Below the pieces are notes generated by a model. That model saw nothing but the letters and a program-made list of their open reading frames with translations. It made no database searches and was not told the origin of the DNA. A stretch of 64,000 nucleotides of DNA from Desulfobacteraceae bacterium. Lineage in GTDB: Bacteria; Desulfobacterota; Desulfobacteria; Desulfobacterales; Desulfosarcinaceae. Position numbers and translations under genes: made by a program. Of this stretch, positions 35,305 through 39,723 are shown piece by piece (within the stretch, counting starts at the first letter, position 1; every line of letters begins with the position of its first letter). Location: positions 48,711 through 112,710 of the forward strand of contig JBNKDU010000124.1 in assembly GCA_050288425.1 (NCBI GenBank), read 5' to 3'.

Positions 35305-36726
35305 TCAATCGATACCCCCCGCCGATGGCCGCTCCCTATATTGCGGTTCGTGATACCCGCGCTCGCTCAGGAACCCCTTGGCCTTGCGTCCGAGGATCTT
35401 CCTGACTTCGGGGATGAATTCCAGGTAGTAACGATCGGCCACCTCCTGCAGCCCCTTGCTCCAGGCGTAGGCGGGGCCCATCATGGCGGCGCCGTGCCGG
35501 GCCCGCCGTCCCTCGTGGTATACCAGCTTCACATAGATTCTGTCCAATGGCTCGTCATGGAAACCGGCGGTGGACTTGCCCTGTTTGATCAGGTCGTCAC
35601 GAATCCGGGTCGCCGGCTCGGCAATGGTTTGGTTGTAGCGTTCGACGAAGTCGTCGAATTGGGTGTAGAACTGCTTGATGAAATCGTCGGCGTGGCATTG
35701 CCGACAGACATGTTGCATGGTTTTCCGCCGCGACTCCCAGTTCTCCTGTTTGAAGGCGATGGGTTTGCGCAGGTTCCACGACAATCGCAGACCGACATCG
35801 TGGTTGACACCCAGATCGATTCTCTTGTCGGCTTGCGGCGGGGGCAGCAGTGCTTTATACACCTCGTTGTCCGTTCCGGACAATACCGTCTTCAATGCTT
35901 CCTCCAACCGACGGTCGGCATCCTTGACGTCCCGTTGGGGCGGCACATCGCCCATGTGACAGCCGGCGCAGGTCGGACCGTGGAAGTAATCCACTCCGGC
36001 CCGCCAGCGGCGGCGGTCCATGTTCAGGCGATCCTGGTAGGCGGCATAGGTCATGCCGTGCTTGCTGCCCCGGTAGATCTCGATGTGCGGGTTTTCCGGT
36101 CCGTTGTGGCAGCGGCCGCAGGTATCCGGCCTGCGGGACTGCTCCGTGGAGAAGAGATGGCGGGGATGGCATGCGGTGCAGGCCCCCTTGCTGCCGTCCA
36201 GATTGATCCTGCCGATGCCCGTGTTGGGCCAAGTGTCGGGGTCCAGCCGTCCGCTGCCGTCCTTTTGCAATTTGACCACCGTGCCGTGGCAGGCTTCGCA
36301 GCCTTTGTACTGGTCTTCGATGCCCCACATGGCCTGTCCCAGAAAATTGTCGATGCTTTCGAGGGTCTGAATGGCATCGGCGTGATGGGAGTTGGTGTAT
36401 TGACCGTATTCCTTCTCATGGCACTGGCCGCAGTCCTTGGGGGTGGGTACGATGGCGATGCGCTCCTTGTGTTCGTATCCGTCGGCGTCCTCGGCGCCGG
36501 CCTTGTGGCAGTCGTAGCAATTGACACCGGCCTGACCCATGGCGCTCTGGTTCCACTGGTTGTAAATTCCCGGCGTGACTTCGCGGTGACATACCACGCA
36601 GACATCTCCCCTGGAATCGCCGTACTTGTCCGGGGGGACATAATAGGCTTCCGCGATACCGGTACAGAACAGGCACACGGTCAAAACGAGAAGTAGTGCT
36701 TTCCAGCAAGATTCTGATTGCGGCAT
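35305..36726 (-). CDS. Octahaem c-type cytochrome of the hydroxylamine-oxidoreductase (HAO) family
   Basis: ATG at 36726, preceded by AAGGAG; signal [21 protein letters not shown]. 8 CxxCH. Stretches colinear with HAO as I remember the Nitrosomonas sequence: [66 protein letters not shown]. Confidence 0.8.
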   Translation of the reverse strand: [473 protein letters not shown]

Positions 36727-36803
36727 GACGGCTCCTTTCCCCAACCCCTCGGCAAGCGCTCTGTCCATGGCCCGTTTGCCATCCTTCTTATGCGGCGTTC
36801 GGG

Positions 36804-38102
36804 TCAGGACACCCTTGGCAGCTCGTTAATGGAAACATCCACGGCCCCGACCGATTCCCGGGGAACGGAAGGTTCTTTTTTTTCTTCAGGCCCGGCTCCC
36901 GCAACCCGCAGTTCTCCGGTTTCGATGGGAATGGCGATTTTCAAGGCCAGGGTGTAAATCAACAGGCCGATGCCCAGTACGCCGATGGAAATCATGATCT
37001 CCGGCGTTTTCGGTGAGTATTCCCAGATTTCGCCCATGGGGGAAGGCACGAACCCGGGCACGATGAAGCCCAGGCCTTTCTCCAGCCAGACGCCGACGAT
37101 GATCAGCACGCAGGCCAGGTTCAGGGTGATGAAGTTCTTCTTGGTCCAGGGGATCAGGAAGAGAAGGAAGGCCGTGATATTGAACGTGATGGCCGTCCAG
37201 ATCCAGGGTACCAGGCCGCTATGGCCGTGCAATCCGACGAAGAGATATATGATGGGCGCCTTGTGCCAGCTGTCGGTGTAGAGTTCCTTGAAGACTTCGG
37301 CTCCCAGAAACAGCAGGTTGATGCCCATGGCGATACAGACCATCTCGGCGATCTTGAACAGCGCCGCGTCCTTGACTTTGAACCTGGTGAATCTGCGGAT
37401 CACCTGAAAGATAATGATGCAAAGGGACGGGCCGGAACAGAAGGCCGAAGCCAGAAACCGCGGCGCCAGGATGGCCGTGTTCCAGAACGGACGCGCCCCC
37501 AATCCATTATACAGGTAGGCCGTGACGGTATGGATGCCCACCGCCCAGGGAATGGAGAGCAGCACCAAAGGCATGTAGACCCATTTATTGGCCTCCTTCT
37601 GCAGGTAGATCATGGTCAACAGGTAGAGAGAGACGGCCATGTTGATGAACAGGTACCCGTTCAATACCAGGATGTCCCAGTCCAGCATGGAGGCCGGGAA
37701 ATTGGGCCTGCCGACGAATGGGAGCAGGTGCCATATTCGTTCCGGATGTCCCAGGTCCAGGGTCACGAAGAGCATGGCCATGAGCAGGGCGCTGACGGCC
37801 AGGATTTCTCCCAGTACGGTGATCTCCTTAATGGGCCCGAAATCATAGACATAGGCCGGGATGACCAGCAATACGGCGGCGGCGGCGACTCCGACCAGAT
37901 AGGTGAAGTTGCCGATATAGAATCCCCAGGAGACCTGGTCCACCATGCCGGTGACCGCCAGTCCGGATGCAAATTGATAGGAGTAGCCCCGCAGGCCGAT
38001 GGCGATCATGCCCAGGATAACGATGATCCAGGCATAGTAGATGGGCGGTCCCTCGATCCATCGGCTGCTGACCTGGCGGATAAAATGGATGGCTTTTTGC
38101 AT
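36804..38102 (-). CDS. NrfD/PsrC-family integral-membrane quinone-interacting subunit
   Basis: ATG at 38102; the track start at 38123 is TTG. About 430 aa and highly hydrophobic with many TM helices. N-terminus ...PPIYYAWIIVILGMIAIGLRGYSYQFASGLAVTGMVDQVSWGFYIGNFTYLVG is typical of NrfD-like proteins. Follows a NrfC-like FeS gene. Confidence 0.8.
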   Translation of the reverse strand: MQKAIHFIRQVSSRWIEGPPIYYAWIIVILGMIAIGLRGYSYQFASGLAVTGMVDQVSWGFYIGNFTYLVGVAAAAVLLVIPAYVYDFGPIKEITVLGEILAVSALLMAMLFVTLDLGHPERIWHLLPFVGRPNFPASMLDWDILVLNGYLFINMAVSLYLLTMIYLQKEANKWVYMPLVLLSIPWAVGIHTVTAYLYNGLGARPFWNTAILAPRFLASAFCSGPSLCIIIFQVIRRFTRFKVKDAALFKIAEMVCIAMGINLLFLGAEVFKELYTDSWHKAPIIYLFVGLHGHSGLVPWIWTAITFNITAFLLFLIPWTKKNFITLNLACVLIIVGVWLEKGLGFIVPGFVPSPMGEIWEYSPKTPEIMISIGVLGIGLLIYTLALKIAIPIETGELRVAGAGPEEKKEPSVPRESVGAVDVSINELPRVS

Positions 38103-39057: not shown

Positions 39058-39102
39058 GCGTTCCTGTGATCGGTCTGGCAATTTATACATTGTGGGCCGA
39101 AA

Positions 39103-39723
39103 TCAATGGCCGGGAGAAGCTTCCTGCGCCGATTCCCAGCGGCCGTAGCCGGGAGGTTTCGGTGGTTCCTGCGCCATGAGCTTCCGGAATCTGGGGCTGT
39201 GCGGATCATGGCAGTGGGCGCAGAGCAGATAGAGTTTGTCACCGTTCCATTGCCCCACGCGACGGCCGTGAATGCCCATCTTCCAGTCGTTGTAAATCTG
39301 GCCGTGGCATTGGCCGCAAAGGCGGTAGGATTGTTCGAAGGGAATCTTTTCCCCGGTGATCAGTTTCAGGGAGTTGCGTTCCTCGAGGTCGTGGCAATTG
39401 AGGCACCATTGCCAGTCGGCGTGTTTGAGCTCGATGTCCTGATGCATCTGCACCAGCAGGCGCGGCGTGGGATCGGGCGCATGGTAGAACCGGCCGAGAA
39501 AGGACGGTCCGAGGCCCTCGCGGTCATCCGGGCCGCCGGCATCCCGGCGGTGGCACGCCTGGCAAGGAAACAACCCCTGGTAGACCAGGGGCGGCGGGAC
39601 CGGATAGAGGGTTTCATCCGCCGGGGAAGGCTGGCCGGCAAGGATTTTTCCAGGCGCCAGCGTCAACGCCGCCATCAGCAGGATGAGCAGGGCGGCTGAT
39701 TTTCGAGGTTTGGCGATGGACAT
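39103..39723 (-). CDS. Secreted tetrahaem c-type cytochrome (first gene of the cluster)
   Basis: ATG at 39723, preceded by a perfect AAGGAGGA. Signal MSIAKPRKSAALLILLMAALTLAPG. Motifs CQACH, CLNCH, CGQCH, CAHCH. The upstream 105 codons of the track ORF look non-coding. Confidence 0.85.
   Translation of the reverse strand: MSIAKPRKSAALLILLMAALTLAPGKILAGQPSPADETLYPVPPPLVYQGLFPCQACHRRDAGGPDDREGLGPSFLGRFYHAPDPTPRLLVQMHQDIELKHADWQWCLNCHDLEERNSLKLITGEKIPFEQSYRLCGQCHGQIYNDWKMGIHGRRVGQWNGDKLYLLCAHCHDPHSPRFRKLMAQEPPKPPGYGRWESAQEASPGH

Follow-up and report, generated by a model that had tools for sequence, protein, structure and literature searches.

In Thermosulfurimonas dismutans and Dissulfuribacter thermophilus, two nitrate ammonifiers that lack NrfA, an 11-gene periplasmic nitrate reductase (Nap) cluster includes a four-gene locus for a multihaem cytochrome homologous to hydroxylamine oxidoreductase (HAO), a further cytochrome c, a periplasmic iron–sulfur (FeS) protein and an NrfD protein; this locus was proposed to act either in the reduction of nitrite or in sulfur metabolism (PMC5276818). 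A similar cluster was later reported in Thermosulfurimonas F29 and T. marina (PMC9676032), and Calisto and Pereira, who reviewed complexes with NrfD subunits, list no HAO-like/NrfCD complex (PMC8076601). Here we analyzed a 64-kb stretch of DNA from a Desulfobacteraceae bacterium (assembly GCA_050288425.1, contig JBNKDU010000124.1; hereafter the window), which encodes the same four components. The initial annotation of this DNA had regarded HAO-family proteins as not normally partnered with NrfCD, a view that the reports of 2017 (PMC5276818) and 2022 (PMC9676032) contradict. In our view, which we hold with about even confidence, the four genes encode the inner-membrane head of a menaquinone-coupled multihaem electron conduit, with the octahaem protein as its hub.

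The four genes lie on the minus strand at the coordinates first assigned to them, as the open reading frame list confirms, and identical gene calls in a second assembly (GCA_050287185.1, contig JBNKBK010000197.1) provide independent evidence. The first gene of the unit (39103..39723) encodes a 206-residue cytochrome c with an N-terminal signal or anchor; its four CxxCH motifs agree with the tetrahaem assignment, although its Pfam cytochrome matches are weak and the Protein Data Bank (PDB) search returned no solved relative at E < 0.05. It is followed by a Tat-exported, DsrO-like four-cluster [4Fe-4S] protein (38140..39057), whose N-terminus, MMKPKFAKHVSRRTFLQ, contains the twin-arginine motif (SRRTFLQ) and which has four cysteine groups (Fer4_11 and others); the Pfam TAT_signal match (E 2e-4) is just below the cutoff of the model. 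The third gene (36804..38102) encodes a DsrP-like integral membrane subunit of the NrfD family (Pfam NrfD 131 bits, cutoff 25.8), presumed to hold the menaquinone/menaquinol site. The fourth gene (35305..36726) encodes an octahaem cytochrome c of 473 residues (P0001), with eight CxxCH motifs, which falls in group A of the HAO/IhOCC clade as described below. The core genes are tightly packed, with gaps of ~12–77 bp or short overlaps.

Family of the octahaem cytochrome

The initial placement of the octahaem protein in the HAO family was upheld by the Pfam model PF13447 (72.5 bits) and by PDB, profile and fold searches. Searching the PDB with the sequence returned IhOCC of Ignicoccus hospitalis (4qo5, E 9e-40), KsHAOr (6h5l, 7e-21) and the N. 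europaea HAO (NeHAO, 7e-14), followed by HOX and HDH of Kuenenia; the entries 1fgj, 4n4j and 6hif are among these matches. The match to IhOCC improved to E 4e-63 when a family profile was used. Comparison of the family profile with a three-sequence oxidative-HAO profile in hhalign gave a probability of 99.85%, over an alignment that ended at residue 390, before the tyrosine region discussed below. Foldseek matched the AlphaFold2 model exclusively to HAO-family structures (4qo5, 6h5l, 1fgj, 4n4n); the model itself is poor (predicted local distance difference test score, pLDDT, 55.9), as expected without haems, and served for the fold search alone. The colinearity of the haem motifs with HAO, noted initially, holds as well: CRQCHADDF of the window protein pairs with CTQCHSERF of NeHAO, and PTCAACHM of NeHAO is among the segments aligned colinearly. 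The other octahaem families, Otr, ONR and MccA, which had been considered as alternative affiliations, gave no PDB match up to E 1 by sequence or profile and none by Foldseek. NrfA appeared in the PDB search only at E ~0.01, no CxxCK motif is present in the protein, and the NCBIfam HDH model scored 63 bits against a cutoff of 900. These comparisons place the octahaem protein in the HAO clade, with IhOCC as its nearest solved relative.

Seven conserved distal-ligand positions align with His99, 160, 204, 246, 279, 323 and 459 of NeHAO. Two of them (residues 63 and 415) are Met in the window protein and His in NeHAO. All 127 relatives of the two groups defined below have Met at position 415, while position 63 is Met in 43 of 48 group A proteins versus His in 64 of 79 group B proteins. 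From the sequence, these substitutions imply His/Met-ligated haems in this branch, probably with a higher potential. For the sixth position of haem 4, the group A alignment contains no additional conserved His, Met, Lys or Cys.

Two groups of homologues and their pocket residues

The best 120 database homologues of the octahaem protein fell into a clean two-way split. Group A proteins (52–100% identity to the window protein) have an insertion of ~40 residues after the haem-7 motif and variable pockets (GPENPH, GPDSPQ, GSSQPQ, GDAHPQ and others), whereas those of group B (about 45% identity) lack this insertion and share the motifs LGPDHPQ and PDYxWWH throughout. The group A set contained 48 sequences with a mean pairwise identity of 64%. 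Group B was enlarged to 79 sequences, one (L002) found by exact-protein look-up and 78 taken from genome-collection loci; with hosts from more than 10 phyla and a mean pairwise identity of 57%, it is the more diverse set. Its hosts include Desulfomonilaceae, Methylomirabilota, Nitrospirota, Ignavibacteriota, Bacteroidota, Desulfuromonadales, Chromatiales and Thiomargarita, among others. The scan of genome-collection contigs yielded relatives of 39–48% identity among the matches listed, with no group A protein among them; the gene contexts of group A are those of five loci found by exact-protein look-up. In a neighbor-joining tree group A is monophyletic. Because groups A and B are sister clades when this tree is rooted with NeHAO, an origin of group A within the Nap-linked lineage is not readable from it, and the polarity of pocket loss is set by the outgroup states alone.

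The Asp/His pair above haem 4 (D267-H268 in NeHAO), which the initial annotation had named as a marker of the active site, is not conserved in the window protein, which has E211-N212 and on this count lacks an HAO-type catalytic pocket. At the Asp position all 79 group B proteins have Asp, whereas group A has Glu in 28, Asp in 8, Ser in 5, Ala in 4, Gln in 2 and Asn in 1. The neighboring His is likewise invariant in group B (79/79) and replaced in much of group A (N18/H12/Q9 and others). An Arg that hhalign and phmmer align with Y334 of NeHAO is present in 79/79 group B proteins and varies in group A (R30/K8/S6/G2/A2), as does the Trp eight residues after the Met ligand (79/79 in group B; S18/N11/G6/R5 and others in group A). 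Overall, 11 columns are at least 97% conserved in group B but less than 60% conserved in group A, the dyad and the Trp included, while 71 columns, among them every CxxCH motif and the distal ligands, reach 97% conservation or more in each of the two groups. Based on this pattern, group A appears to have kept the haem scaffold while its pocket was released from selection. Group B, with its strict pocket residues and its nitrate-reductase neighborhood, appears to behave like a catalytic reductive HAO.

Oxidative HAOs carry a tyrosine that forms a cross-link to haem 4 of the adjacent subunit, and the initial annotation had named Tyr420 of the window protein as the residue to compare with it. In NeHAO, whose sequence was confirmed against 4fas_A (100% over 546 residues), Tyr467 lies at +8 from His459, and the spacing in Kuenenia HOX is the same. 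The window protein has Met415 in place of His459, followed by Tyr420 at +5, Trp422 at +7 and Ser423 at +8. Tyr420 is thus two to three residues off the Tyr467 equivalent in the better-supported alignments: MAFFT pairs Tyr467 with Trp422, and the gapless Met+8 rule, as given in a passage of PMC8940962, places it at Ser423. The same passage attributes to Haase 2017 the pattern of a conserved Met followed at +8 by Trp, which takes the place of the Tyr. Pairing Tyr420 with Tyr467 would need an ad hoc gap of three residues. The Tyr420 equivalent is Val in KsHAOr and Trp in IhOCC; within the two groups it is strongly conserved (44/48 in group A, 78/79 in group B). When the last 81 residues of one group B protein, chosen to cover this region, were searched against the PDB, no match was returned. 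Assignment to the oxidative HAO/HDH (P460) enzymes was rejected, as the window protein has no Tyr at the NeHAO Tyr467 position. The epsilon-Hao-like combination of Met with Trp at +8, in the form stated in that passage of PMC8940962, was rejected as well; all 48 group A proteins have the Met, but at +8 the window protein has Ser and the group as a whole varies.

Group A octahaem proteins are labeled 'hydroxylamine dehydrogenase' by JGI. The literature searched contained no account of group A as a clade, of its degenerate pocket and insertion, or of its seven-gene association. What appears to be new here is thus this clade with its pocket decay, the inserted segment and a fixed seven-gene association; the octahaem family, the type of module and clusters of NHL proteins with cytochromes (for the last, PMC9769857) were each already known singly.

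FeS and NrfD subunits

The affiliation of the FeS and NrfD subunits was judged by hidden Markov model scores instead of a reference phylogeny. Among NCBIfam models the NrfD subunit matched DsrP with 402.5 bits (cutoff 350), followed by QrcD (39.8), TtrC (28) and HybB (23), and the FeS subunit matched DsrO with 199.8 bits (cutoff 200), followed by QrcC (158), ArrB (145), TtrB (134) and NrfC (126). The nearest solved structures were ActC of ACIII for the NrfD subunit (6f0k_C, E 3e-14), and PsrB (2vpw_B, E 4e-36) and ArrB for the FeS subunit. The likeness to Qrc, Nhc and Ohc complexes noted initially therefore stands for the architecture and not for the family, which is DsrO/DsrP-like by NCBIfam (DsrP 402 versus QrcD 40 bits).

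Furthermore, the best database relatives of the NrfD subunit track the groups of the HAO-like proteins, with 64–81% identity for partners of group A and 60–63% for those of group B, the latter from Desulfomonile and Syntrophaceae; NCBI names these relatives NrfD/PsrC family. By these scores the pair did not side with a polysulfide or nitrite reductase system that has a separate catalytic subunit, an outcome that the initial annotation had named as one that would count against it. By sequence, the pair is a DsrOP-like paralogue dedicated to HAO-like cytochromes. Membership of three described complexes was tried and rejected. DsrP and DsrO are the best-matching models, yet no dsrM, dsrK or dsrJ is present in the cluster or in the window. 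For QrcABCD, the QrcD and QrcC scores compare with cutoffs of 570 and 400, and the cluster contains neither a QrcB-like gene nor any molybdopterin subunit. For NrfABCD, the NrfC cutoff is 378, NrfA is absent, and NrfB matches had E > 0.001.

The NrfD subunit passes the NCBI DsrP equivalog cutoff with no dsrMKJ nearby, which presents an annotation hazard. As a result, group A genes may be miscounted where metagenomes are surveyed for hao or dsrP.

Gene neighborhoods of the two groups

In group A, the order c4 (the tetrahaem cytochrome), FeS, NrfD, HAO-like protein, a protein of uncharacterised family, NHL protein and large cytochrome is fixed in 5/5 independent loci examined, none of which contains nap genes. 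The initial annotation had described the four-gene core correctly; the conserved unit comprises seven genes, and the island that it heads eighteen. Identities to the window proteins range from 73–83% for the FeS subunit down to 36–56% for the large cytochrome, and c4 is 62–72% identical in group A loci versus 38–46% in the Nap-linked ones.

The fifth gene (34313..35284, minus strand) encodes a conserved 323-residue protein with an N-terminal transmembrane helix and an all-alpha helical-repeat domain. It has no Pfam or NCBIfam match and only 102 detected homologues, all hypothetical; in each of the group A loci a counterpart of ~300 residues is encoded next after the HAO-like protein. The AlphaFold2 model (pLDDT 79.7) shows 16 helices, arranged as a membrane helix and an all-alpha solenoid, and found no PDB match at E < 0.01, with weak ARM/HEAT-like matches. 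The sixth gene (33369..34316, minus strand) encodes an NHL-repeat beta-propeller of 315 residues (Pfam NHL 104.8 bits), 49–60% identical in all group A loci. The last of the seven (31080..33362, minus strand) encodes a cytochrome c of 760 residues with 18 CxxCH motifs, which matches Paired_CXXCH_1 and MtrC/MtrF-domain Pfam models. Counterparts of 760–952 residues occupy the same position in L003, L084, L086 and L088; the large cytochrome of the group A unit has 18–22 haems.

Among the matches listed, the same four genes were present in 15 of 80 genome-collection loci. Their order is HAO-like protein, c4, FeS, NrfD in 14 of the 15, the exception (L075) having the other three genes divergent; the locus found by exact-protein look-up (L002) has the same order as the 14. 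Compared with the window, these group B loci show identities of 58–71% for FeS, 50–63% for NrfD and 38–46% for c4. Where enough flanking sequence was available, 8 of 11 loci among the matches listed continue with a gene for a small tetrahaem cytochrome and then with napA and napD. In Nitrospirota and Dissulfurispiraceae loci (L027, 11790-16024; L037, 11383-15605) the HAO-like gene is followed by a distant molybdopterin oxidoreductase and a more distant FeS/NrfD pair (44% and 29% identity), a further way in which the cytochrome family is linked to modules of the NrfD type.

The 23-kb island and its surroundings

The seven-gene unit stands at the head of an island of 18 genes (16475-39723, 23 kb, one strand), which contains nine cytochromes with ~85 CxxCH motifs, four NHL propellers, two of them with lipoboxes, and one cytochrome b. 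A second quinone-type sub-module (27897..30993) consists of a 7-haem cytochrome (30031-30993), a 7–8-haem cytochrome with a C-terminal transmembrane helix (28904-29986) and the cytochrome b (27897-28946; PF01292 Ni_hydr_CYTB, 34.9 bits), all on the minus strand. In L088, this trio of two 7-haem cytochromes and cytochrome b again adjoins the seven-gene unit, together with a small cytochrome, an NHL protein and a large cytochrome. In two gammaproteobacterial loci, weak homologues of the pair at 27897-29986 directly follow the HAO-like gene (L074, 2347-3999, 27–29% identity; L076, 5029-6756, 26%), which suggests, at the level of sequence, a second, cytochrome-b-type quinol partner for the HAO-like cytochrome family.

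The rest of the island (16475..27890, minus strand) encodes 3-haem, 22-haem (914 aa), 4-haem and 11–12-haem cytochromes, an NHL protein, two NHL lipoproteins and a putative barrel. The last, a 684-residue protein (19271-21325, minus strand) flanked by the two lipobox-bearing NHL proteins, has a signal peptide, stretches of alternating residues and the C-terminus ...VELIRIPF, and is therefore a putative outer-membrane beta-barrel; it has no Pfam or NCBIfam match.

At the other end of the island lie aprA (956 bits), the HdrA-like qmoA and qmoB, and qmoC (486 bits), all on the plus strand (9177-16305), and upstream of the tetrahaem gene lies sat (40134-41405, minus strand, 456 bits). The island thus lies within what is often a contiguous sat-apr-qmo neighborhood. 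Directly after the sat stop codon, a terminator-like hairpin (40105-40073, minus strand; 14 pairs, 9 of them G-C, then TTTATTT) separates sat from the cluster. A leader of roughly 350 nt precedes the c4 gene, with a GGAGGA ribosome-binding site before its ATG. Based on the hairpin with its T-run and this leader, the cluster is a transcription unit of its own. The candidate membership of sat in the operon was ruled out by the terminator and by the absence of sat from the other group A loci.

The leader contains a TGTGA-containing stretch at ~39960. Just beyond sat are a gene for a cyclic-nucleotide-binding (Crp/Fnr-type) regulator (41705-42247, plus strand) and two tRNA genes (42396-42486 and 42607-42689, minus strand); the window contains no rRNA. 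The closest named relatives are Desulfobacterales and Desulfobulbaceae metagenome-assembled genomes. In L086, a cytochrome P460 family gene (PF16694; 16469-16951, minus strand) lies three genes downstream of the group A cluster on the opposite strand, the sole nitrogen-cycle-flavored neighbor seen in any group A locus.

Proposed role of the module and alternative explanations

Since all eight haems and the seven distal ligands of the octahaem protein are kept and its pocket residues are lost, the protein is most likely a periplasmic hub. From sequence comparison we infer that the gene products form a complex in which, on the periplasmic side, the cofactor-less NrfD/DsrP-like subunit would pass electrons and protons to or from the menaquinone pool. 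The Tat-exported DsrO-like ferredoxin would dock on this subunit and relay electrons to the tetrahaem cytochrome, which in turn would pass them to the octahaem protein, probably assembled into the trimeric 24-haem ring typical of the family. This hub would exchange electrons with the products of the neighboring genes, namely the helical-repeat protein with its membrane anchor, the NHL propeller and the 18-haem cytochrome, and the onward route may lead through the further cytochromes, the NHL lipoproteins and the putative outer-membrane barrel of the island. A plausible direction, suggested by the sulfate-reduction genes of the host, is from extracellular or periplasmic donors into menaquinone, feeding QmoABC and AprAB encoded next door. 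The broader proposition, that an HAO-family octahaem cytochrome was exapted as the non-catalytic haem-ring hub of an undescribed inner-membrane gateway, built with the DsrOP-like pair, the helical-repeat protein, NHL propellers and 18–22-haem cytochromes, between menaquinone and the cell exterior in uncultured sulfate-reducing Desulfobacterota, is tentative, and we rate it somewhat below even.

The initial annotation had left two readings side by side, an electron-transfer hub and a catalytic protein; the comparative data favor the hub and make catalysis the less favored. In the catalytic alternative that deserves most attention, the module is a quinol-dependent reductase of nitrite, NO or hydroxylamine, built like NrfABCD, with a catalytic HAO-like subunit and c4 in the role of NrfB. 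This we consider doubtful. The same four components do adjoin napA in the Desulfomonile-type loci and belong to the Nap clusters of Thermosulfurimonas and Dissulfuribacter (PMC5276818, PMC9676032), HAO relatives without the Tyr cross-link, such as epsilon-Hao and KsHAOr, are reductases (PMC8042395), and the P460 gene of L086 would fit. However, the Asp, His, Arg and Trp that are invariant in 79 diverse relatives are all unconstrained in group A, neither the window nor the five group A loci contain nap, nrf, hcp or another nitrogen gene, and the conserved neighbors are electron carriers and scaffolds rather than nitrogen enzymes. It is also conceivable, if improbable, that the octahaem protein acts with a remodeled pocket on another substrate, e.g., a sulfur species such as sulfite, polysulfide or tetrathionate, or, in detoxification, reactive oxygen or nitrogen species. 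The genes sat, aprA and qmoABC beside the island point that way, as do the activity of the related octahaem families MccA and Otr on sulfur compounds (PMC9250108), the sulfur role that Slobodkina et al. raised for the four-gene locus (PMC5276818) and a possibly homologous NrfD/tetrahaem/FeS set that is strongly upregulated with sulfite and H2 in D. thermophilus (PMC13490349). A remodeled pocket should nevertheless be conserved within the clade, whereas the pocket positions of group A differ, and the protein has no similarity to MccA or Otr. Finally, the FeS and NrfD subunits might be the DsrOP part of the DsrMKJOP complex of the organism, with the cytochromes as accessory donors. Although the DsrP model passes its cutoff and DsrO reaches it, this seems very improbable given the absence of dsrMKJ, the NrfD/PsrC name that NCBI gives to the NrfD relatives and the fact that the closest of these all partner HAO-like genes, Nap-linked ones included.

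Several observations weigh against the hub. The closest sub-clade of group A (P0001–P0017) conserves GPENPH, conceivably a different set of catalytic residues. Haem 4 has probably stayed five-coordinate, as catalytic haems are, a feature that a reductase would share; cytochrome c554, an electron carrier of the superfamily, also keeps a five-coordinate haem (PMC9250108). IhOCC likewise lacks the dyad His, yet is listed as an octaheme nitrite reductase (PMC9250108), which speaks for N-oxide reduction as well. Reduction of Fe(III) oxide persisted in Desulfovibrio ferrophilus mutants from which the cytochrome clusters linked to NHL proteins were missing (PMC9769857). In addition, sat, apr and qmo do not adjoin the cluster in the other group A loci, so that their proximity here may be incidental, and all group A members are from uncultured organisms.

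If the gateway exists, it would play the part of CymA, ImcH or CbcL in sulfate respiration supplied by direct electron uptake. The seven genes would then be a candidate, testable route by which electrons from outside, supplied by partner archaea, minerals, metallic iron or cathodes, reach the menaquinone of sulfate reducers, and a nitrogen-cycle enzyme would have been recycled as wiring, its haems and ligands kept while the catalytic residues decayed.

Comparison with known systems

The Nap-linked loci of T. dismutans (TDIS_0606-0609) and D. thermophilus (DBT_2326-2329), compared here by description, have the same four components as the window (PMC5276818, PMC9676032). In the Desulfomonile-type loci the HAO-like gene comes first and napA and napD adjoin, unlike the order in the window; their NrfD subunit is 57–63% identical to that of the window, and their HAO-like protein, ~45% identical, lacks the 40-residue insertion and keeps the Asp-His pair, the Arg and the Trp. 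IhOCC resembles the window protein in having Met at both Met/His ligand positions, no cross-link Tyr at +8 and a long insertion between haems 7 and 8. It differs in being archaeal, with ~25% identity, an Asp-Val pocket versus Glu-Asn, and a Trp at the Tyr420 position.

The epsilon-Hao of Campylobacterota and KsHAOr (Kustc0458) share with the window protein the eight-haem HAO fold and the lack of a Tyr cross-link. Epsilon-Hao is partnered by NapC/NrfH-type or dihaem cytochromes. Partners of these same kinds serve KsHAOr (PMC8042395). Reductive HAOs keep the Asp-His dyad (MGPDHPD in KsHAOr), which the window protein does not, and by the passage of PMC8940962 cited above they carry Trp at +8 from the Met/His ligand, which is absent here.

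In D. ferrophilus, DFE_0448-0451 and DFE_0461-0465 combine NHL and multihaem proteins and are candidate extracellular electron-transfer loci (PMC9769857). Likened by content alone, they resemble the island in placing large multihaem cytochromes beside NHL beta-propellers in a sulfate reducer, and no HAO-like/NrfCD head is reported for them (PMC9769857). The Ohc complex, also compared by description, consists of the octahaem OhcA, the FeS protein OhcB and the haem-b membrane subunit OhcC (PMC4641369), whereas the membrane subunit in the window is of the NrfD type and not a cytochrome b.

NrfABCD and MccACD have the architecture seen here, a periplasmic multihaem protein with a four-cluster FeS protein and an NrfD-type quinol subunit, and Nrf also has an extra small cytochrome, NrfB (PMC8076601). 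The window differs in having no CxxCK NrfA and no MccA, its multihaem subunit being from another clade. DsrOP and QrcABCD share with it a periplasm-facing FeS and NrfD pair served by cytochrome c, here without DsrMKJ or a QrcB-like subunit. In function, the module may resemble Qrc, which reduces menaquinone with electrons from periplasmic cytochromes (PMC6303296).

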